From positions 5,755 to 69,754 of the forward strand of contig JBAXJB010000003.1 of the NCBI GenBank assembly GCA_037138055.1: a stretch of 64,000 nucleotides of DNA, written 5' to 3'. Shown here piece by piece: positions 11,192 through 24,697 of the stretch (the first letter of the stretch is position 1; the number at the start of each line of letters is the position of its first letter). This DNA comes from Alphaproteobacteria bacterium (GTDB lineage: Bacteria > Pseudomonadota > Alphaproteobacteria > Paracaedibacterales > CAITNM01). The translations under genes were made by a program, and so were the position numbers. The notes beneath the pieces were generated by a model. It had not been told where the DNA came from. It made no database searches and saw only the letters and a list, made by a program, of their open reading frames with translations.

Positions 11192-13366
11192 TTACTTAGT
11201 TTTCATATGATAAACGCCATCCCAATCCGCTGGGGGGGGAGTTTTTTTGAAAGCTTCACATCTTTCAATATAGAGTTCACATGGATCATCTTGGCCAAAT
11301 ATTTTTTGTAAATCGTGAAAAATAGTTAAAGCCTCATCCCAGCGTTGCTCAAGATAGAATCTAAAAGCTTTAGTAAATTCATTACAGAATTTTAGTTGAT
11401 CATCACTTGGCAACACCAAAGGGTTGGAATTTTTCAAAGCAACTAATTCGTAAATGGTAACCCCTTCGTTTTTACCTTTAACCGCAACAATATCTAATGG
11501 GCGAACAACCGCATGATCGTGCAAATGGTGAACTGTTGCTTCACTAAGCATAATATTTGTTCCATAAGCCTTGTTAGCTCCTTCGAGACGTGCAGCCAAG
11601 TTAACGGAATCACCAATAATTGTATAATTCATTCTTTCAGATGATCCTATGTTTCCAACAATCACTTCACCTGTATGAATACCAATTCTTGTTAAAAGCT
11701 CTGGCTTCTTCTCAAATACCCACTTTCGATTAAGATCCAACAATCGTTTTTGACAAAGCAATGCCGTTAAACAACAATTTAGGGAATGGGCATTATCTTG
11801 TTGTGGAGCGCCCCAAAAAGCCATGATTGCATCTCCAATATATTTATCTGTCGTTCCATTGTTTTCAGCTACAATAGAAGTCATTTCATCAAAATATTCA
11901 TACAAGTGTAACACCAGCTTTTCTGCAGGATAAGTTTCACTAATAGTTGTAAAATTGGCAATATCTGAGAAGAAAATTGACAATTGCTTTTTCTTACCGC
12001 CTATTTTTACTTCAACTCCCTTGTCCACAAGTTTTTTTACCAAATTTTTAGGCACAAATTTTCCAAATGAAATAAGGCTTTTCCGCATACGTGAAATAGA
12101 ATTTTGCAGTTTTTGTATTTCTTTAATTCCAGAAACCACTTCAGCCACTGGATCCAAATCAAAATTAGTTATCTTATCGGCCTGTAATGACAGATTATTA
12201 ATAGGTGCAGCTATACGCCTCGCCATAATCGCTATGACTACAATCGAAAGAATTAATATCAGAAGACAAATCAGCAGCGTATTACGTTGTGTAACCTTAA
12301 CAACCCCAATGTATTCATCAATAGGAGTTATCATTAGAAATTCCCACCCTTTAAAGCCTTCCAGAAGGAATTCTTTAAATAGAGCAATATACTCAACATC
12401 TCCTGATGTGAAAATAAAACGTTGCTGTTTATCAATTTGCTTTGCACGATATGCAACTGATGCAGTCTTGTCAGTTAAATCATCTATAGTAACTAATTTA
12501 GTTTCTGTACCAACAACTTTAGAATAGTTTTTTTCAGTGGGATGAGCGACTATTTCACCTTTTTGATTAAGCACCATAGATACGCCTTTTATATCACTTT
12601 TTTGAAGATCAACAGCCAGTTTAGGTAAACCTACAGTGGAAGAAATGACCCCTACAAAGTCTCCAGTATCTGAAAGTAAAGGCACACCACAAGCAATACT
12701 TGGTGCTTGTGTTACATCAGAAACAAAAATATCTGTCCAAATATTCGAACGATTTTGCGCCGTTTTTATGTACCATGGACGATTTTTGTGAACCATGGTA
12801 ATTTGCGCTTCAGGTATTTTTTCTTCGTCTATTTTTTTACCTTCATTGTCTAGATAGATCCATATTTCTGTTGGCTTTACATCGCTTCTATCAACGATTC
12901 TTAAAGCAAACACAGCTTTTTTAGGGAGAATTTTTGCTTGTTCAATACGATAGGTTGTACCTGGTGTTATTGGTTTTACTTGTACAAAATACCCTGACTC
13001 TGTGCCAACATATACACTATCCACAAGCTTATACTGGCGGCAATGTCCCATCATAAATTGAATTAAATCTTTGCTAATTACAGCAGCTTTTGAGGTATCT
13101 CGCACTAAGTACCCACCAAGTTCTGTTGAAGTTAGAACTTCACGAAAATTATCCGCAATACTTGAAACTTCAGAAATACTGGCATTTTCCATTAAACGAT
13201 TCGAAAAATCAACAATTGAACGAGAGTTATTAATATAGGTGTAGGTTACAATGGAAATAGCTGTGATAACCTGTAAAACAAAAAAACTACTTAAAATATC
13301 AAATCTAAGATTTCTACTTTTGAATCTATTCGTTAACACACTGAAAAAACTTTTAATAATCATCAC
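11192..13366 (-). CDS. Membrane-bound class III adenylate/guanylate cyclase with a periplasmic Cache-like sensor and a HAMP domain
   Basis: An N-terminal TM segment is followed by an extracytoplasmic domain of about 300 aa, a second TM segment (LLICLLILILSIVVIAIMA) and then HAMP (RRIAAPINNLSLQADKI). The catalytic core is LSIFFSDIANFTTISE...DKYIGDAIMAFWGAP...RIGIHTGEVIVGNIGSSERMNYTIIGDSVNLAARLEG. Confidence 0.85.
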   Translation of the reverse strand: MMIIKSFFSVLTNRFKSRNLRFDILSSFFVLQVITAISIVTYTYINNSRSIVDFSNRLMENASISEVSSIADNFREVLTSTELGGYLVRDTSKAAVISKDLIQFMMGHCRQYKLVDSVYVGTESGYFVQVKPITPGTTYRIEQAKILPKKAVFALRIVDRSDVKPTEIWIYLDNEGKKIDEEKIPEAQITMVHKNRPWYIKTAQNRSNIWTDIFVSDVTQAPSIACGVPLLSDTGDFVGVISSTVGLPKLAVDLQKSDIKGVSMVLNQKGEIVAHPTEKNYSKVVGTETKLVTIDDLTDKTASVAYRAKQIDKQQRFIFTSGDVEYIALFKEFLLEGFKGWEFLMITPIDEYIGVVKVTQRNTLLICLLILILSIVVIAIMARRIAAPINNLSLQADKITNFDLDPVAEVVSGIKEIQKLQNSISRMRKSLISFGKFVPKNLVKKLVDKGVEVKIGGKKKQLSIFFSDIANFTTISETYPAEKLVLHLYEYFDEMTSIVAENNGTTDKYIGDAIMAFWGAPQQDNAHSLNCCLTALLCQKRLLDLNRKWVFEKKPELLTRIGIHTGEVIVGNIGSSERMNYTIIGDSVNLAARLEGANKAYGTNIMLSEATVHHLHDHAVVRPLDIVAVKGKNEGVTIYELVALKNSNPLVLPSDDQLKFCNEFTKAFRFYLEQRWDEALTIFHDLQKIFGQDDPCELYIERCEAFKKTPPPADWDGVYHMKTK

Positions 13367-16354: not shown

Positions 16355-17395
16355 ATGATTAAATTACGCTTATTATTTGTAGGGTTATTTGTGCTTGGTA
16401 GCACCTATTTTTTAGTCAAAGAAAGTATTTCAACACCTAGGATTCTTGTATTACAAAGTTATGGAAGTGATTATTCTTGGACACATGATGTTGATGTTGG
16501 TATCAAGAAAATTTTGGAAAAAGAAAGTACTGTTACCGTAAGATGGCACTATATGGACACAAAAAATCACCCAGAAAAGCATTACTTAGAAAAAATTGGT
16601 ATTGTTAGTAAACGAGTAATAGATCAATTCAAGCCATCCGTGATCATTGCAGTAGATGACGATGCTCAGGAATACGTGACTAAGTACTACAATAACGATC
16701 CAAACATTAAGATTGTTTTTTCTGGCGTAAACGCCACAAGGGAAGAATACGCCTTTGATAAGGCAAATAATGTCACCGGTATTTTAGAACGCTTACCAGT
16801 TGATGGCATTGTTGACTCACTACAGCTACTTGCAGGAACGACAAATACTATAAAAATAATTCATGTAAGTGATGAGTCAAAAACCGTAAAACTTGATGAT
16901 AAGTTTTTGCATGCATATAAAGGATGGAAAAATGTAAAAATGCTTCCTTCACTGCTTGTTTCAACTTTTGATGATTGGAAAATAGCTATTAAAAAAGCCT
17001 GCAAAGACGCTGATTATATCGTTATATCAAATTACAGAAAAATCTATGATGTTAAAGGTAGTGAGAAAAAAGTTCTCCCTAAAGAAATAATGGCATGGAC
17101 TATGACCAATGCTACTAAGCCAATTATAGGAATGAATGCGTTTATATTTGAAGATGGTGCGCGTTTAGCAATAGCAACATCCCCTTACGAACAAGGAGAG
17201 GTCGCAGCACAGTTTGCACTAGATATTATCAAGACAGGCGTTCTACCCCCGCATACTCAAACAAAGCAGTTCGTAGTAGGAATAGATGAAAAAGCTATCA
17301 TGCAAGGTGGAGAATTTTTTGGACTCCCAAAAACTTATGTAGCCTATGCTTTGTATTCAGGAAAATTCAGACAAAAGAAAAGTAATGCAAAATAA
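16355..17395 (+). CDS. Orphan periplasmic substrate-binding protein (ABC_sub_bind/COG2984-like)
   Basis: Signal/anchor MIKLRLLFVGLFVLGSTYF. RILVLQSYGSDYSWTHDV...KPSVIIAVDDDAQEYV...IKIVFSGVN follows the family pattern. No permease or ATPase gene is adjacent. Confidence 0.55.
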   Translation: MIKLRLLFVGLFVLGSTYFLVKESISTPRILVLQSYGSDYSWTHDVDVGIKKILEKESTVTVRWHYMDTKNHPEKHYLEKIGIVSKRVIDQFKPSVIIAVDDDAQEYVTKYYNNDPNIKIVFSGVNATREEYAFDKANNVTGILERLPVDGIVDSLQLLAGTTNTIKIIHVSDESKTVKLDDKFLHAYKGWKNVKMLPSLLVSTFDDWKIAIKKACKDADYIVISNYRKIYDVKGSEKKVLPKEIMAWTMTNATKPIIGMNAFIFEDGARLAIATSPYEQGEVAAQFALDIIKTGVLPPHTQTKQFVVGIDEKAIMQGGEFFGLPKTYVAYALYSGKFRQKKSNAK

Positions 17396-17411
17396 TACTC
17401 CTTCTCTTACG

Positions 17412-18299
17412 TCATAAGGTAGATGTTTGAAGCGCTGAATATTGCAATGCTTTCTTAAGCTTTTCAAAAGCAGAAATTTCTAACTGACGCACACGTTCAC
17501 GAGAAATTGTTAAGTTTTGACTCATTTCTTCAAGTGTTTTAGGTGGTTCATCTAAGCGCCTGCCGATGATAATTTCTTGCTCCCTAGCATTGAGTGCTTT
17601 CATGGCTCCTTGCAATGCGTCACGACGTTTATCGAACTCATCACGCTGGACGATTTGAATTTCTTGATTGTCGCTTTCATCCGCTAACCAATCCATCCAT
17701 TCCATAGTGCTTTCGCTATCATTAATTGGCGTATTTAAAGACGAATCGTGACTTGCTATGCGCTGTTCCATTGACCAGACTTCATCCTCTGACACATTAA
17801 GCTTTAACGCTATTTTTTGTACTAATTCTGGGGTAAGCTGGTCACTGTGAAGCTTACCATCCTTTTCTTGAGCTTCTTGGATAATTGCTCGTTTGGTTTT
17901 TTTTAAGGAAAAAAACAGCTTTTTTTGTGCGGCAGTTGTACCAATTTTTACCAACGACCAGGTATGTAAAATGTAGTCTTGCATGCTGGCCTTAATCCAC
18001 CACATAGCATAGGTAGAAAAGCGAAATCCACGGTCTGGCTCATAATGTTTCATGGCTTGCATCATGCCGATATTGCCTTCAGCAATTAAGTCACTAATAG
18101 GCAGACCATATCCGCGATAGCCTACTGCAACTTTTGCTACTAACTTTAGATGCGCTGCTGCCAATTTTTCCATAGCCTTATGGTCTTGGTTTTCACGCCA
18201 ATCTTTAGCTAGTTTATATTCTTCTTCAAGACTGAGAACCGCAAGGCTTCGAACCTTTTGTACATATTGATGGTGGTCATGATGCTGCTGCAAAATCAT
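17412..18299 (-). CDS. rpoH: RNA polymerase sigma-32 heat-shock factor
   Basis: Motifs AHLKLVAKVAVGYRGYGLPISDLIAEGNIGMMQAMKHYEPDRGFRFSTYAMWWIKA, the RpoH-box-like AAQKKLFFSLKK, and region 4 ISRERVRQLE. Confidence 0.9.
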   Translation of the reverse strand: MILQQHHDHHQYVQKVRSLAVLSLEEEYKLAKDWRENQDHKAMEKLAAAHLKLVAKVAVGYRGYGLPISDLIAEGNIGMMQAMKHYEPDRGFRFSTYAMWWIKASMQDYILHTWSLVKIGTTAAQKKLFFSLKKTKRAIIQEAQEKDGKLHSDQLTPELVQKIALKLNVSEDEVWSMEQRIASHDSSLNTPINDSESTMEWMDWLADESDNQEIQIVQRDEFDKRRDALQGAMKALNAREQEIIIGRRLDEPPKTLEEMSQNLTISRERVRQLEISAFEKLKKALQYSALQTSTL

Positions 18300-18364
18300 T
18301 TACAAATAAGACGCCTGCGTTAAGTTTAGCTAGTTTTTTATAGCGTATTCAAGCGGGGTATTTT

Positions 18365-20128
18365 TCAACTAGCAATCAGGCCTTCATTGATTTGTTGATT
18401 CCATAGTTTTGCATATAAGCCATTTTGTTGCAGTAATTTAGCATGGGTGCCTGATTCTGCAATTACACCTTGGTCTAATACAAAAATTTTATCAGCATCA
18501 ACAATGGTGCTAAGCCTATGGGCAATAATAATTGTCGTCTGATTTTTAGAAATTTTTTGCAAACTTTCTTGAATGCGCTTTTCAGTAGAACTATCAAGAG
18601 CTGAAGTTGCTTCATCAAAAATGAAAATCTTTGGTTTTTTAAGTAGCATTCTAGCAATTGCTACTCGCTGTTTTTCACCACCTGATAGTTTCAAACCTCG
18701 TTCGCCAACTTTGGTTTCAAGCCCTTCAGGAAGAGATGCTATAAAACCATCAAGCTCTGCATTTTTAGCAGCATCTTGAATTTCACTAGGAGAAGCTAGT
18801 GGAGCACCGTAAGCAATGTTGTAACCAAGTGTATCGTTGAATAATACAGTGTCTTGCGGCACCATTCCCAAAATATCCCGAAGGCTTGTCTGAGTGATCG
18901 ACTTTAGGTCTTGGTCATCAATGTAAATACTTCCTTTGCAAGGGTCATAAAACCGAAATAGTAAGCGAGACAACGTTGATTTTCCAGCGCCGGTTGCCCC
19001 AACAAACGCTGCTGTTTCACCTGACTGTATTTCAAAATTTATATTTTTTAAAATCTGACGATCGGTACCATAGTTAAAGCATATGTTTTCAAACACAACT
19101 TTGCCTGTTTTATAGACCAATGGTTTAGCACCTACAGTGTCTTTAATATCAGATTCTTGATCAAGCAATTCAAACATTTCCCCAAGATTGACGATTCCTT
19201 GTTTAATTTCCCGATAAGCAAACCCAAGGTTAAATAAAGGCATTACCAATTGCAGGGAAAAAGCAAACAATGCAGCAACATCTCCTGGTGTAATTGCACC
19301 TATTGCCGCGCGTTTTACAGCAAAAGCAAGCATTCCACCCAGGCCTATAGAGAATATGATCGCTTGTCCTGCATTTAAAAAGTTAAGGGACCCTCTCAAT
19401 TTGCGTGATGTTTTTTCATAAACGGCTTGCACTTCATCGTAACGCCTAACTTCAAATTCTTCATTTCCAAAATACTTTACCGTTTCAAAATTGAGCAAAC
19501 TATCAATTGCACGTGTTTGGGCTGTGTTATCATAAGCATTCATTTGCTTAACAATTTTCAAGCGCTTGGTTGATACAATGATTGTAAATACAACATAAGA
19601 GACCATGGTTAAAATCATAATCACACTGCACCACGGGCTATACCAGATCCATAATAAAACCGATAAAAATACTGTTTCAATTATGCTTGGGAAAATCGTC
19701 ATCATTAAAAACTGACTAATCATTTCTAGAGATTTTGTAGCTCGCTCAATAATACGACTAAGCCCACCCGTTTGTCGGTTCAGATGAAATTTTAAGCTTA
19801 AAGAATGTAAATGCTTAAAAGTAGTGACAGATATTTCACGAAAAACCCGCTGGGTGACAATGTTAAAAGTGTAATCACGAAGTTCGTTAAATGTTTGGGC
19901 CAATATACGCACGACAACAAAACCAACTAAAATGCCAACTGGGAAAATAGCTGGGGTTCTTTCCAGATGATCAATTAAGTATTTAAAAGCAATAGGTCCA
20001 CATAATACAAATATGCGGCCAATCAATAAAAACGAGAGTGCACTAACAAGATACATTTTCGCTTTGACCATATTTTTAGGCCATAAATAAACCTTAAGTT
20101 TTTTCAGTGTCAGTGTTTTAGTGTTCAT
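18365..20128 (-). CDS. Atm1/ABCB7-type half ABC exporter (TMD-NBD fusion)
   Basis: Six-TM domain with HLHSLSLKFHLNRQTGGLSRIIERATKS. Walker A is GATGAGKST. The signature LKLSGGEKQRVAIARMLLKKPKIFIFDEATSALD is typical of Atm1/HMT rather than CydD/CydC. Its start ATG overlaps the cydX stop (ATGA). Confidence 0.82.
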   Translation of the reverse strand: MNTKTLTLKKLKVYLWPKNMVKAKMYLVSALSFLLIGRIFVLCGPIAFKYLIDHLERTPAIFPVGILVGFVVVRILAQTFNELRDYTFNIVTQRVFREISVTTFKHLHSLSLKFHLNRQTGGLSRIIERATKSLEMISQFLMMTIFPSIIETVFLSVLLWIWYSPWCSVIMILTMVSYVVFTIIVSTKRLKIVKQMNAYDNTAQTRAIDSLLNFETVKYFGNEEFEVRRYDEVQAVYEKTSRKLRGSLNFLNAGQAIIFSIGLGGMLAFAVKRAAIGAITPGDVAALFAFSLQLVMPLFNLGFAYREIKQGIVNLGEMFELLDQESDIKDTVGAKPLVYKTGKVVFENICFNYGTDRQILKNINFEIQSGETAAFVGATGAGKSTLSRLLFRFYDPCKGSIYIDDQDLKSITQTSLRDILGMVPQDTVLFNDTLGYNIAYGAPLASPSEIQDAAKNAELDGFIASLPEGLETKVGERGLKLSGGEKQRVAIARMLLKKPKIFIFDEATSALDSSTEKRIQESLQKISKNQTTIIIAHRLSTIVDADKIFVLDQGVIAESGTHAKLLQQNGLYAKLWNQQINEGLIAS

Positions 20129-20217
20129 TCTGCGCTATCCATTTCTAGCCACATGGCATTTAAAATACTAAACGCACATGCAAGGCCTAGCCCTAATATC
20201 CAACTAAAGTACCACAT
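20125..20217 (-). CDS. cydX: Cytochrome bd oxidase small subunit CydX
   Basis: Below the ORF-track size cutoff. My translation is MWYFSWILGLGLACAFSILNAMWLEMDSAE. The MWYF.WILG start and single TM segment match E. coli CydX (MWYFAWILG...). A GAGGA Shine-Dalgarno lies 4 nt upstream, and the gene starts 7 nt after the cydB stop. Confidence 0.78.
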   Translation of the reverse strand: MWYFSWILGLGLACAFSILNAMWLEMDSAE

Positions 20218-20224
20218 AAATCCT

Positions 20225-21355
20225 CTAATACATTTGGGGGTCTGATAAATCTTTTAATACCAATCGTTTGCTGAAAACTTTATACGTCCAGGTGATATAA
20301 GCAAGCACAAACGGCAGGAATATCAGCACAGCGATAAGCATAATAAATAGGGTAAGCCTTGATGAAGAAGCATCCCAAATAGTTAAGCTATGATTTGGTG
20401 CAAGTGTTGATGGTAAAATAAAGGGAAAAGTTGCCAAACCAGCTGTAGCAATCACCCCGATAATACTAATTGAAGTTCCCAAAAAGCCAACGATGGCTTT
20501 TCTTTTACCTGAAACCATAGAAATCAAAAATCCAAAGCAAGCAATTAACGTTGAAATCATAGCGCTGCTACCAAAGAATCGCACCGACAACTCATCACTT
20601 TCTTCTATAAATTGCATGCCAACTATTTTTGCTAAAATATTTTGAGATCCAGATGTTTCTTCAAGAGTGAATCCAAAGCATGTTCTATTTAAAACAATTC
20701 CAGCGCTTGCAAAGCAAATAAGCGCCAGAAAAGAAAAAGCCTTTTGAACCCCATGCGCTTTTTGAGCAATGGGATGATCTACTTTTAACCGTAAATAAGC
20801 AGCGCCGTGCGCTATTAACATGTTCAGAGAAACCAAGCCTGCAAGCAAAGTAAATGGATTAAATAATTCAAAAAATACACTTTTTGTTTTGAGCATTAGG
20901 CTTTCGTCAAAAACAAAAGGAAGTCCCAGAATGGTGTTGCCAACAGCTATTCCAAAAACCAAACAAGGAATAATACTTGTAATACAAAGGGCCCAATCCC
21001 AGCGGTTTCGCCATTCTTGGCTCGGCATTTTACTACGAAATTTCAAACCAACCGGGCGTATAATTAAACACGCAAGTACCAAAAACATAGCTAAATACAT
21101 GGTTGAAAAGGCCACGGCGTACACAATTGGCCAAGCTGCAAAAATAGCCCCTGCCCCCAAGATAAGCCACACTTGGTTACTTTCCCAAACAGGTGCAATT
21201 GTGTTAATCATTAAACGACGCTCATCATCTGTTTTAGCTAAAGCTGTAAGAAGACTAGCGACACCTAAATCAAACCCATCAGTTAAAGCAAAACCTGTCA
21301 GTAAGACGCCAAGTAACACCCACCAGATGATTTGTAACATTTCAAGTGATGGCAT
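20225..21355 (-). CDS. cydB: Cytochrome bd ubiquinol oxidase subunit II
   Basis: LQIIWWVLLGVLLTGFALTDGFDLGV...AP.WESNQVWLILGAGAIFAAWP is the canonical CydB pattern. It lies directly downstream of cydA. Confidence 0.92.
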   Translation of the reverse strand: MPSLEMLQIIWWVLLGVLLTGFALTDGFDLGVASLLTALAKTDDERRLMINTIAPVWESNQVWLILGAGAIFAAWPIVYAVAFSTMYLAMFLVLACLIIRPVGLKFRSKMPSQEWRNRWDWALCITSIIPCLVFGIAVGNTILGLPFVFDESLMLKTKSVFFELFNPFTLLAGLVSLNMLIAHGAAYLRLKVDHPIAQKAHGVQKAFSFLALICFASAGIVLNRTCFGFTLEETSGSQNILAKIVGMQFIEESDELSVRFFGSSAMISTLIACFGFLISMVSGKRKAIVGFLGTSISIIGVIATAGLATFPFILPSTLAPNHSLTIWDASSSRLTLFIMLIAVLIFLPFVLAYITWTYKVFSKRLVLKDLSDPQMY

Positions 21356-21356
21356 G

Positions 21357-22904
21357 TTACGCTCCTTTTGTTTTTGAAAACATGTCAGGCCCCACTTTTA
21401 TATATTTTTTTAAAAGCATCACATCAAACACTAAAAGAATTGAATAGAACACCACGAACATTGATAAGGAAATAATAAGAGATGATTTATCAAGATTTGA
21501 AGCAGCCATAGAGGTTGGAAGCACGCCTTCAATAGCCCAAGGTTGCCGTCCATATTCTGCAACGAACCAACCGCTCATAATAGCAATCCACGGCATGGGC
21601 AAAATAACAAGACCGCAACGTAAATACCATGGGTGCTTTTCAAAACGACGTTTTATGGAATACCAAAAACCAAGCATAAAATACGCTAATAAAATAAATC
21701 CAAAAGCAACCATGACTCGGAAAGATATGAACAATGGCAAGACATTGGGGACGGTATCATGAGCAGCCTGCTTAATGGTAGCTTCACTTACTTGGTTTAG
21801 ATCAGAAGTATATTTCTTAAGCAGCAGCCCATAACCAAGATCATTTTTGTATTTCTCAAACTGTTCTGCAGCATGATGATTTTTTCGGTCTTTTCGAAGG
21901 TCTTGAAGGGCAAGATACGCTTTCTGTCCATTCCTAATACGGGGAATTGCTAATGCCTCAAGTTCAGTAATACCAGGAATTTCCGCGGAAAAAGAACGCG
22001 TAGCAATAATTCCTAATAAATAGGGTAATTTAACTTCTAAACGGTTTTCATATTTTTCTTGATTTGGAATAGCAAATAGTAAAAGACTAGCTGGCGCTTT
22101 TTCTGTATGCCACATAGCTTCCATGGCAGCAATTTTCATTTTTTGATTCTGGCTTGTTGTGTATCCGCTTTCATCACCTAACACAATCACGCTTAGGGCA
22201 GATGCTAAGCCAAAGCTTACAGCTACTGTCATTGAACGCTTAGCAAATTCAACATGACGTTTTTTCAATAAGTACCAAGAACTAATAGCCATAACGAACA
22301 TCGCACCAGTAACGTACCCAGCACTAACTGTGTGCACGAATTTACACTGCGCCACTGGGTTAAAGAATATTTCATAAAAATTAGTTAGTTCCATACGAAG
22401 TGTATCAACATTAAAAACGGAACCTATTGGGTTTTGCATCCATGCGTTAGCAATAAGAATCCAAAGGGCTGAAAAACTAGTACCAAAGGCTAACCCCCAA
22501 GTGACGCACAAGTGCGCCTGATGTGATAATTTATTCCACCCAAAGAAAAACAGCCCAATTAAAGTAGCCTCAAGAAAAAAGGCCATCAGCCCTTCAATAG
22601 CAAGTAAAGAGCCAAAAATATCACCAACGTAATGACTGTAATACGCCCAGTTCGTGCCAAATTGAAATTCCATAGTAATGCCAGTAGCAACACCCATGGC
22701 AAAGTTAATACCAAACAACAAACCCCAAAACTGCGTCATTTGCTTCCATATAGGATTTTTGGTCATTACATAAACGCTTTCCATAATGGCCAACAAAAAA
22801 CTTAAACCTAAGGTAAGCGGCACAAATAGAAAATGGTACATAGCAGTAACGCCAAATTGAAGACGAGCTAATTGAACGGCAGTTAACGATTCAAACATAT
22901 ACAC
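21357..22904 (-). CDS. cydA: Cytochrome bd ubiquinol oxidase subunit I
   Basis: LARLQFGVTAMYHFLFVPLTLGLSFLLAIMESVY is near-identical in pattern to the E. coli CydA N-terminus. Q-loop and GWFVAEYGRQPW motifs are present. The track start at 22904 is GTG; the ATG at 22898 (MFESL...) is an equally good start. Confidence 0.93.
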   Translation of the reverse strand: MYMFESLTAVQLARLQFGVTAMYHFLFVPLTLGLSFLLAIMESVYVMTKNPIWKQMTQFWGLLFGINFAMGVATGITMEFQFGTNWAYYSHYVGDIFGSLLAIEGLMAFFLEATLIGLFFFGWNKLSHQAHLCVTWGLAFGTSFSALWILIANAWMQNPIGSVFNVDTLRMELTNFYEIFFNPVAQCKFVHTVSAGYVTGAMFVMAISSWYLLKKRHVEFAKRSMTVAVSFGLASALSVIVLGDESGYTTSQNQKMKIAAMEAMWHTEKAPASLLLFAIPNQEKYENRLEVKLPYLLGIIATRSFSAEIPGITELEALAIPRIRNGQKAYLALQDLRKDRKNHHAAEQFEKYKNDLGYGLLLKKYTSDLNQVSEATIKQAAHDTVPNVLPLFISFRVMVAFGFILLAYFMLGFWYSIKRRFEKHPWYLRCGLVILPMPWIAIMSGWFVAEYGRQPWAIEGVLPTSMAASNLDKSSLIISLSMFVVFYSILLVFDVMLLKKYIKVGPDMFSKTKGA

Positions 22905-23035
22905 TACTTGGTTAGGTGTTGATCAATTTGTGTAGAACTTAATTGTATACGGTGGTTACGCACATAAACAATCAAAAGTGTCAAAATGACTAACTTGATG
23001 GCAATAGCTATTTTGATATCTTTAAATTTGGGCAT
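22904..23035 (-). CDS. Putative 43-aa single-TM protein encoded immediately upstream of cydA
   Basis: My translation is MPKFKDIKIAIAIKLVILTLLIVYVRNHRIQLSSTQIDQHLTK. A GGAGG Shine-Dalgarno lies 5 nt upstream of the ATG at 23035. Its TAG stop (22904-22906) abuts or overlaps the cydA start. No family is recognised. Confidence 0.35.
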   Translation of the reverse strand: MPKFKDIKIAIAIKLVILTLLIVYVRNHRIQLSSTQIDQHLTK

Positions 23036-23173
23036 TCATACCTCCACTTGACCTCAGTATAGCGTAAGTGAATACAATTTTATAAATATTTTAACAATAC
23101 TATAAAATATTCCTTGAAAATACAAATGAACATAATTATATATATTAAAGATAGTTTATTTTGGATCATTATT

Positions 23174-24697
23174 ATGTTTTTAAAAGTTTTTATTTGTCTA
23201 TGGACATACACTTTGTGTTCAACGGTTGTTAACGCAACTGACATTAACGTTTGGGAGCAAGCAAGCCAAGCGCTTCGATATCAAAATATCGACCTTATCA
23301 GACGCTTCAGTACAGAATTGAGCGACGAAAAAGCACCTTTAGAATTATTTACTTCTCAACAAAAAAAAAGTAATTGGGAAACTCCTGAAGCTTATAAGGA
23401 GCGCATGTTAGTACCGGCTCTGCTGTGCAAAGTAGGTTGGAAAGGTACTTTATTTTTAATGTCATCTGGAGAAAATATTCAAGAATTTTTTCAAGGAAAT
23501 CTTCCGCTCTGTTTGAAAAAACCCGATGCAAAAGAAGTTGTCAAAAAATATTTCAAAGATATTGAAAATGCTGCAGAGAAAGGCCAAACAGGAGCTGTGT
23601 TATGTTTCATGTCTCTTTTTTATACAGAAAAAGATTGTTGGCAGCACAGTTTTTCTCATGGATTTTTTAAATATTGCCAGAAAAACGGATACGGAAATTT
23701 TGCAAAATATGTACTTCATCATTCAGATGATTTTTCAGGACACAGCCGAAATATGCACAGCCAATTTAAGATTTGGAAAGGACAATGTTTAGCGGAGGCG
23801 TTTGTAACTGAGTTGAAAAAAGGAAATGCATATTATTTTGAGCATGAAAAAGAAAAACTTAAAAAATTAAAATTAGAACAACCATCTGTCAATGCGCTGT
23901 ATGTAGAGTTGGCCAAACAAGCTCGTTTTGACTTAATGGATTTTGTTCTAACACATAATTCATGGCCACAACCATCATCTGAGGCAAAACTTACTGCCTT
24001 ACAGATAGTAAATTCTACTTTCCACGAAGTATTGATGCAGAAAAACTATTCTAAAGCAAAGGCAATGCTCGCAAGAAAAACTGAAAACAAACCCGTACTA
24101 ACAGTTTTACACGCTGCTGCAGCAAAAGCAGCGCAAGAAAGATCATGGCAGACAGTTGATGATTTACTTGCTAACATGTACGACGAATCACGCCCTGTAC
24201 CACAAGCACTGACGGATGATTTATTTGTTTGTGCAGTGGCGTATCAAAATCATGAATACTTCAGCTTATTAACAGGCGAAAATCCTTTTGCAGTATTAAC
24301 AGGTGAAGAATGGGCATATGCCCCTCCAAGCCCTCCTGCATTTGATAGAGGATTATTAGAAACCGTAAAATTCAGACATCAAGATATGTTTGATAGCTTT
24401 TTGGATAGTTATAGTGAAAAACTATCAGAGACTGGAATGAAAGCAGCTTTAGAACAAGCTGGAAAGCCTAAAGTTAATGGAAGTTTGTATGAAATCAATG
24501 CATCTTCAGGATTCTTTGATAATCACTACCAAAAATGTTTAAAAAAGAAACTAGGTATTCCAACTATAGCTGATTTGATGCTTTCAAGTACGAATCTTGA
24601 TTTTGAACTAATTGCACATAATACCATAGATTTATCGTCTCTGGTTATTCCCGTAATTGATGCAGCAAATAGCGTTACTGCTGGAACTGAAGCGTAG
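23174..24697 (+). CDS. Hypothetical secreted protein, alpha-helical, with degenerate ankyrin-like segments
   Basis: The track ORF starts at 23114 (TTG). The in-frame ATG at 23174 gives a clean signal peptide MFLKVFICLWTYTLCSTVVNA|TD. Segments such as TVLHAAAAKAAQERSWQTVDDLL and DLFVCAVAYQNHEYFSLL loosely fit ankyrin helix pairs. No other motif is recognised. Confidence 0.45.
   Translation: MFLKVFICLWTYTLCSTVVNATDINVWEQASQALRYQNIDLIRRFSTELSDEKAPLELFTSQQKKSNWETPEAYKERMLVPALLCKVGWKGTLFLMSSGENIQEFFQGNLPLCLKKPDAKEVVKKYFKDIENAAEKGQTGAVLCFMSLFYTEKDCWQHSFSHGFFKYCQKNGYGNFAKYVLHHSDDFSGHSRNMHSQFKIWKGQCLAEAFVTELKKGNAYYFEHEKEKLKKLKLEQPSVNALYVELAKQARFDLMDFVLTHNSWPQPSSEAKLTALQIVNSTFHEVLMQKNYSKAKAMLARKTENKPVLTVLHAAAAKAAQERSWQTVDDLLANMYDESRPVPQALTDDLFVCAVAYQNHEYFSLLTGENPFAVLTGEEWAYAPPSPPAFDRGLLETVKFRHQDMFDSFLDSYSEKLSETGMKAALEQAGKPKVNGSLYEINASSGFFDNHYQKCLKKKLGIPTIADLMLSSTNLDFELIAHNTIDLSSLVIPVIDAANSVTAGTEA

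Follow-up and report, generated by a model that had tools for sequence, protein, structure and literature searches.

The cyd locus in a 64-kb stretch of alphaproteobacterial DNA (the window) raises two questions. What is the 43-amino-acid (aa) open reading frame (ORF) that runs up to the start of cydA, and why is cydX followed at once by a gene for an Atm1-type ATP-binding cassette (ABC) exporter? Alphaproteobacterial bd-I operons usually carry cydDC, in the order cydABDC or cydDCAB (PMC5322542), and this one does not. A sequence-only reading of the window had suggested that the ORF encodes an additional small subunit or assembly factor of the bd oxidase and that a homodimeric Atm1-type exporter had taken over the role of CydDC. 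Our analysis makes it likely that the locus is the cydPABX operon of a bd-I-type quinol oxidase and that atm1 is a housekeeping ortholog linked to it only in one narrow lineage. The CydP family was already known; what is new here is that an alphaproteobacterial cydPABX operon carries a divergent member of it and is fused to atm1 in a lineage-specific manner. The features are listed below, with coordinates counted in the whole window; all features of the cyd unit lie on the minus strand.

23036..23104, minus strand: cyd promoter and 5' leader with a GGAGG Shine-Dalgarno sequence; left end of a 2,975-bp presence/absence segment
22904..23035, minus strand: cydP, 43 aa, single transmembrane (TM) helix; divergent NF045611 member, putative cytochrome bd small subunit
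21357..22898, minus strand: cydA, subunit I of cytochrome bd-I, 513 aa when counted from the conserved ATG (PF01654, 563 bits; PRK15097, 728.8 bits)
20225..21355, minus strand: cydB, cytochrome bd subunit II (TIGR00203, 364 bits, cut-off 117; PF02322, 312 bits)
20125..20217, minus strand: cydX, 30-aa small subunit, unannotated (TIGR02106, 63.9 bits, cut-off 31.6; PF08173, 61.4 bits, cut-off 26.2)
18365..20128, minus strand: atm1, Atm1/ABCB7-type ABC half-transporter of 587 aa, transmembrane domain followed by nucleotide-binding domain (PF00664 and PF00005; NaAtm1 4mrn, 527.7 bits)
17412..18299, minus strand: rpoH (sigma-32), conserved downstream neighbor, outside the oxidase (NF005143, 333.9 bits, cut-off 241)
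20130..23104, minus strand: the leader-cydP-cydA-cydB-cydX block, 2,975 bp, absent from the equivalent locus in sister lineages

Among NCBIfam families, the 43-aa ORF (protein accession MEI7493167.1) matched only NF045611, the CydP family, with 14.5 bits (E value 0.026; residues 5 to 41 on positions 3 to 41 of the 45-position profile). Pfam gave no match, even up to an E value of 1. A word-indexed search of 5.8 billion proteins returned only the ORF's own 95% cluster, and an exhaustive phmmer search of 1.84 billion representatives yielded nothing beyond two relatives from the clade and a single spurious repeat protein. We recognized the family not by direct search but through the region upstream of cydA in 75 loci from outside the clade, most of which held an ORF of about 55 to 90 aa ending at the cydA start. 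These ORFs shared the motif [RK][DE][IV]xxAxxxKxxLL..., followed by a tail such as AAIEQHLLAP.

Two alignments were compared, one of the six distinct clade sequences (A2) and one of 21 out-clade ORFs from upstream of cydA (A3). Hhalign matched them over 41 columns with a probability of 93.3% and an E value of 2.7e-7. When A3 members were scanned against NF045611, four scored 36 to 55 bits and others scored 24, 13, and 11 bits. A hidden Markov model (HMM) built from A3 only gave the 43-aa ORF 30.2 bits, compared with a maximum of 8.7 bits among 2,000 shuffles and about −2 bits for CydX. The same HMM found a CydP-like ORF of at least 30 bits in 63 of the 75 out-clade cydABX loci; in nearly all of these its end lay no further than about 15 nucleotides (nt) from the cydA start. 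Judged by these profile comparisons, the 43-aa ORF is a short, diverged CydP of the NF045611 family.

The conservation of the ORF at the amino acid level, which we checked in relatives, was clear. Seventeen positions were invariant among the six clade sequences (F4, D6, K8, A10, I11, K14, I17, L18, L20, I22, Y24, V25, R26, L32, S33, Q39, and H40), and the pairwise ratio of nonsynonymous to synonymous substitution rates (dN/dS) was 0.06 to 0.39 where dS was unsaturated, mostly 0.1 to 0.2. By this substitution pattern, the ORF is a real gene under purifying selection. Its maximum 17-residue hydropathy of 2.97 indicated a single TM helix, and K14, which lies inside that helix, aligned with the one column that is invariant among the out-clade sequences. 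CydP-like ORFs were also present in Holosporales locus L115 (53 aa), in L113 (43 aa), and in L111, from a Paracaedibacteraceae metagenome-assembled genome (MAG; GCA_019636035.1). The L111 ORF, MRRYFKHLGIIILIKVAVV...VQHQFLD, lies before cydA at positions 1050 to 1200 of that locus and had not been called as a gene, which suggests that CydP is systematically underannotated in Holosporales-type genomes.

CydP was named in Burkholderia cenocepacia H111, where it is a fitness determinant in transposon sequencing (Tn-seq) together with cydA and cydB, and it was reported to be absent outside the Burkholderiales (PMC9104464, PMC11742914). The ORF of this alphaproteobacterial clade is a CydP, and the family extends much further than reported. 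The B. cenocepacia cydPABX operon has the same order of small ORF, cydA, cydB, and cydX, a small-ORF stop that abuts or overlaps the cydA start, and an E. coli bd-I-type CydA accompanied by CydX. The B. cenocepacia CydP likewise has a single TM helix and the core [RK][DE][IV]xxAxxxK...L, and its C-terminal tail is hydrophilic. The version described here is shorter, at 43 aa compared with about 55 to 90 aa in the out-clade loci, and lacks a tail of the FFxPxHRP or AAIEQHLLAP type, retaining only a residual IDQHL. In further contrast to B. cenocepacia, the host belongs to an alphaproteobacterial lineage of protist endosymbionts, and its operon continues into atm1. Escherichia coli cydABX with CydH (YnhF) offers another parallel, a bd-I-type oxidase with small single-TM accessory subunits, of which CydX is orthologous to the one found here. 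However, no ORF precedes cydA in E. coli, where CydH, the second small subunit, is encoded away from cydABX. The 43-aa ORF matched no family other than CydP in the NCBIfam and Pfam scans, although it was not aligned directly with CydH.

The out-clade set (L036 to L110) also contained seven loci with adequate upstream sequence but no CydP-like ORF. Six of these (L049, L084, L089, L094, L096, and L100) held ABC-ATPase-like genes within the locus, and in four of them (L089, L094, L096, and L100) cydDC-like pairs flanked the operon. The CydP-bearing loci mostly had no full-length exporter gene nearby; in L076, L078, L090, L097, and L098, a match to the ATPase domain only was found within a few kilobases. 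This difference may be phylogenetic, or CydP and a nearby exporter may truly be alternatives to each other.

For every junction within the unit, and for the coordinates and strand as well, the sequence-only reading was correct. The cydP ATG is preceded by GGAGG at a spacing of 5 nt. Its TAG stop codon (22906-22904) shares 1 nt with a GTG at 22904; an ATG follows at 22898, 5 nt after the stop. In relatives the ATG is conserved and the GTG is not, so cydA most likely starts at 22898. That ATG has no Shine-Dalgarno sequence of its own. The gap between cydA and cydB is 1 nt, cydX begins 7 nt past cydB behind a GAGGA, the ATG of atm1 overlaps the cydX stop codon (ATGA), and 65 nt separate atm1 from rpoH. 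The unannotated 30-aa CydX that had been proposed after cydB was borne out by both family models listed above, and CydX was also uncalled in the annotations of some relatives. A promoter and terminator scan of positions 17300 to 23300 gave match counts no higher than those in shuffled sequence and no strong sigma-70 consensus match.

This arrangement suggests how the operon might be expressed. CydP would be translated from its strong Shine-Dalgarno site, and cydA most likely by termination-reinitiation after cydP, because it lacks a Shine-Dalgarno sequence and 5 nt separate the cydP stop from its start; cydB and cydX would use Shine-Dalgarno sites of their own. CydP may insert as a single TM helix beside nascent CydA and then either stay as a subunit or help assembly. 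CydX is most likely a small membrane subunit or assembly helper of CydAB, by analogy with E. coli, and the same is most likely true of CydP, given its family position and the Burkholderia Tn-seq data. Because it is nearly always coupled, stop to start, to a cydA without a Shine-Dalgarno sequence, CydP is a promising candidate, either as a fourth subunit of bd-I or as a cotranslational assembly helper. In this respect the earlier suggestion for the 43-aa ORF holds up, the ORF being a homolog of CydP, a putative subunit that is known but biochemically uncharacterized (PMC9104464). Within this Finniella-like lineage, the operon has come to adjoin atm1, upstream of rpoH, and atm1 is probably cotranscribed by read-through from the cyd promoter.

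The ABC protein (MEI7493163.1) had been called Atm1/ABCB7-like rather than CydD/CydC-like, and we could confirm this. Its best match among solved structures was NaAtm1 (4mrn; 527.7 bits over residues 7 to 583), followed by AtATM3, ABCB7, and ABCB6, all over their full length. Scores against CydD and CydC models were far below the respective cut-offs (251.7 versus 435 bits for TIGR02857, 224.2 versus 329 for TIGR02868, 249.7 versus 630 for PRK11160, and 219.2 versus 684 for PRK11174). The protein carries the signature LSGGEKQR. In the alignment with NaAtm1, residues R206, N269, Q272, G319, and R323, which we take to be glutathione contacts, were conserved, while R210, D316, M317, and M320 were replaced. 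The conserved R/N/Q/R set corresponds to the glutathione-contacting residues R315, N378, Q381, and R432 of ABCB7 (PMC13376393). TM6 reads PLFNLG here and PLNFLG in NaAtm1, an unusual swap that relatives without the cyd linkage share. The cavity motifs compared, those of TM5 and TM6, were the same in cyd-linked and unlinked Atm1 copies.

On this alignment evidence the ABC protein is an ordinary alphaproteobacterial Atm1 ortholog, by homology a homodimeric exporter of glutathione-linked species. It aligns over its full length with both NaAtm1, the heavy-metal/glutathione exporter of Novosphingobium aromaticivorans (PDB 4MRN), and mitochondrial Atm1/ABCB7; unlike NaAtm1, its gene is translationally overlapped with cydX. 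It resembles E. coli CydDC, the heterodimer required for cytochrome bd assembly, in being a type I ABC exporter. Its gene lies beside the cyd genes, as cydDC does in operons of other bacteria with the order cydABDC or cydDCAB, and the possible thiol and heme substrates of CydDC have chemistry in common with those of the Atm1/ABCB7 family. CydDC, however, is encoded by two paralogous genes, whereas here there is one gene, an Atm1 ortholog that stays when the cyd genes are lost.

The window comes from a Finniella-like MAG of the Paracaedibacteraceae, and the closest genome records were MAGs of this family labeled Candidatus Finniella and 'Odyssella'. We looked at the contexts of Atm1 homologs in relatives and beyond. 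The order cydP-cydA-cydB-cydX-atm1(-rpoH) was found in L001 to L009, L013 to L016, and L031 to L035, whose Atm1 proteins were 78 to 97% identical to that of the window (L013 shows no rpoH, L034 ends within cydB, and L035 ends inside atm1). The linkage of atm1 to cydX was confined to this narrow clade, with Atm1 identity of at least 78%. It was missing from L012 (Atm1 87%), where atm1 stands alone between dnaJ and radA, and from more distant orthologs: at 68% identity atm1 follows a gene for an AMP-binding (acyl coenzyme A) ligase; at 57% (L027:6508-9253) it lies directly after hemB (porphobilinogen synthase, ALAD), on the same strand; and at 52%, in a MAG of the Paracaedibacteraceae, gcvTHP precedes it and cydPABX lies about 930 kb away on the same contig. 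The neighbor in L027 belongs to heme biosynthesis, which could be significant or a coincidence. In none of the 75 out-clade cydABX loci, which came from metagenomes, was an Atm1-type gene next to cydX. In the basal cyd-bearing loci L113 and L114 (CydA 78%), two unrelated genes, and no atm1, lie between cydX and rpoH; L113 shares the flanking Trp/Tyr permease gene and rpoH with the window. A conserved two-gene module after cydX in L113 (430 and 255 aa) and L115 (438 and 247 aa) was considered and dropped, as BLAST found no similarity.

Sister lineages revealed what happens to atm1 when cyd is lost. L010 (Ca. Finniella inopinata MAG, Atm1 97%) and L011 (Atm1 94%) have kept the Trp/Tyr permease gene, atm1, and rpoH but lack the 2,975 bp corresponding to 23104..20130 of the window. 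In L010 the block is replaced by 105 bp, and homology to the window stops at 23105. A check of this junction for cyd remnants and direct repeats found no convincing homology of the 105-bp filler to the cassette. L010 is therefore undecided when taken on its own, and only the placement of its Atm1 in the tree makes it a loss. L011 retains a 40-nt stretch matching the leader (23094-23055) at 87.5% identity, and after it ATG-CTC-AAA-TTT (MLKF...). Because both a leader remnant and the first cydP codons are retained, we read L011 as a deletion scar. The promoter kept before atm1 after this deletion fits expression of atm1 from the cyd promoter. L011 also has about 640 bp with a 139-aa ORF (L011:9894-10313) inserted between atm1 and rpoH, where the window has its 65-nt spacer.

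An earlier stage of loss was apparent in L001 (3405-3580), L002, L006, and L007/L009, in which a T6 run at about codon 35 of cydA (window ~22795-22800) has lost 1 nt to become T5. As L007 and L009 are the same contig, the frameshift occurs in four or five assemblies, from different samples of a near-identical strain, and in these cydP, cydB, cydX, and atm1 are intact. Since the frameshift lies downstream of the MYHFLF histidine, only an internal restart at about Met 40 is left for cydA, and a product started there would be without this conserved N-terminal histidine. It looks as though pseudogenization of cydA is in progress. In a neighbor-joining tree of Atm1, the cyd-less L010, L011, and L012 were nested among cyd-bearing lineages, and we therefore infer that cyd was lost repeatedly. 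Together with the unchanged cavity motifs, these contexts point to atm1 being a housekeeping gene, its linkage to cyd a lineage-specific event of gene order or compaction, cotranscribed without a dedicated cyd function.

Several points weigh against assigning the 43-aa ORF to CydP and CydP to the oxidase. The ORF fails the curated NF045611 cut-off of 29.6 bits, the literature we searched contained no structure or pull-down tying any CydP to the bd complex, and the Burkholderia Tn-seq phenotype of CydP could be a polar effect on cydAB. The ORF might instead be a translated leader (an upstream ORF) that loads ribosomes onto cydA, its peptide having no role in the oxidase. The GGAGG of the ORF, the lack of one at cydA, the 5-nt distance from stop to start, and the recurrence of abutting or overlapping stops and starts throughout the family would all suit such a device. 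A pure coupling device, however, needs no recognizable peptide motif, and here the motif is shared between the alphaproteobacterial clade and the GC-rich out-clade loci, dN/dS is about 0.1 to 0.2, and the 17 invariant columns include the lysine of the TM helix and the C-terminal QH. We regard a mere leader as quite improbable and favor a CydP that acts with the oxidase. An alternative history for the operon is that cydPABX is a laterally acquired cassette, recently inserted before atm1, the cyd-less loci being ancestral empty sites. This would account for the clean presence/absence boundary relative to L010 (23104/20130), the reported restriction of CydP to the Burkholderiales (PMC9104464), and the sharp fall in CydA identity from at least 75% inside the clade to at most 69% outside it. 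But the remnant of the promoter and cydP start in L011 marks a deletion, the cyd-less lineages are nested within cyd-bearing ones, and L113 has the same Trp/Tyr permease and rpoH flanks. G+C content is 33 to 43% across the window and the same in the cyd block as in its flanks, and the sequence and ORF listings contained no boundary repeats or mobile-element genes, although no dedicated repeat search was made. Finally, the nearest named CydA relatives (63 to 68% identity) are MAGs of Alphaproteobacteria, Holosporales, and Paracaedibacteraceae, and those examined carry CydP, which makes vertical descent more likely than recent transfer. An inserted cassette is thus very unlikely in our judgment; transfer from Beta- or Gammaproteobacteria was also judged unlikely, on the CydA relatives.

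More has to be said for the proposal that a homodimeric Atm1-type exporter took over the role of CydDC, supplying heme or reduced thiol to the periplasm, and that it sits in the cyd operon for this reason. A number of observations support it and weigh against an incidental linkage. Most cyd-bearing clade members retain the ATGA in which the cydX stop and the atm1 start overlap, as expected of a functional operon partner, and the 64-kb window contains neither cydDC nor any other ABC ATPase. The promoter retained before atm1 in L011 suggests that atm1 is really expressed from it, and one distant ortholog follows hemB. The Atm1 relatives ABCB7 and ABCB6 handle heme or porphyrin with glutathione, ABCB7 being bound and stimulated by heme or cobalt protoporphyrin (CoPP) with glutathione (PMC13376393). 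CydDC, for its part, is currently regarded as a heme transporter (PMC10374445), so that a functional overlap between Atm1 and CydDC is chemically plausible. Against these stand the retention of Atm1, at 94 to 97% identity, where cyd is deleted or cydA is frameshifted, the absence of the linkage for orthologs at 87%, 68%, 57%, and 52% identity, in basal L113, and in all 75 out-clade loci, and the identity of the TM5/TM6 cavity motifs in linked and unlinked copies. A search of the literature on Finniella or Holosporales with cytochrome bd or cydDC found nothing usable. A dedicated replacement for CydDC is thus unsupported, a claim weakened rather than refuted, and we consider it unlikely. Its specific form, that in Finniella-like endosymbionts without cydDC an Atm1 homodimer cotranslated with CydX supplies heme and/or glutathione for bd maturation, seems to us rather improbable.

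The wider neighborhood of the operon is variable. Divergent from the cyd unit, at 23114-24697 on the plus strand, lies a gene for a 527-aa protein with no family match except a weak one to CAMSAP_CH. Close relatives differ here: L010 has a version of 518 aa, L001 has 367 and 95 aa, and in L011 its place is taken by an unrelated protein of 202 aa. The gene may be effector-like. Type VI secretion genes for VgrG and TssF lie about 5 to 20 kb from the cyd unit, at 27829-30000 and 37774-39585 on the plus strand, VgrG having the domains Phage_GPD, Phage_base_V, and Gp5_C; the cyd locus of L113 is also adjoined by a VgrG gene. On the other side, at 11192-13366 on the minus strand, is a gene for a 724-aa protein that combines an adenylate/guanylate cyclase domain with a dCache_1 sensor. 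In L113 and L114 a protein of homologous architecture is encoded directly after rpoH, which indicates that this neighborhood has been rearranged among relatives.

If Atm1 did serve the oxidase, a mitochondrial-type Atm1 would be a natural functional substitute for CydDC, and the newly reported heme export activity of ABCB7 would be linked to respiratory oxidase assembly in bacterial relatives of the mitochondrial ancestor. As it stands, the evidence favors happenstance of gene order. The clade nonetheless displays all stages of the loss of a bd oxidase in a protist-associated lineage, from an intact operon through a frameshifted cydA to a deletion with a promoter remnant. For the CydP family, our assignment gives an identity to a hypothetical 43-aa gene of the MEI7493167.1 type and to many uncalled ORFs before cydA, whose short and diverged versions the current NCBIfam cut-off misses. 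CydP reaches well past the Burkholderiales, into endosymbionts of the Holosporales and Paracaedibacteraceae.

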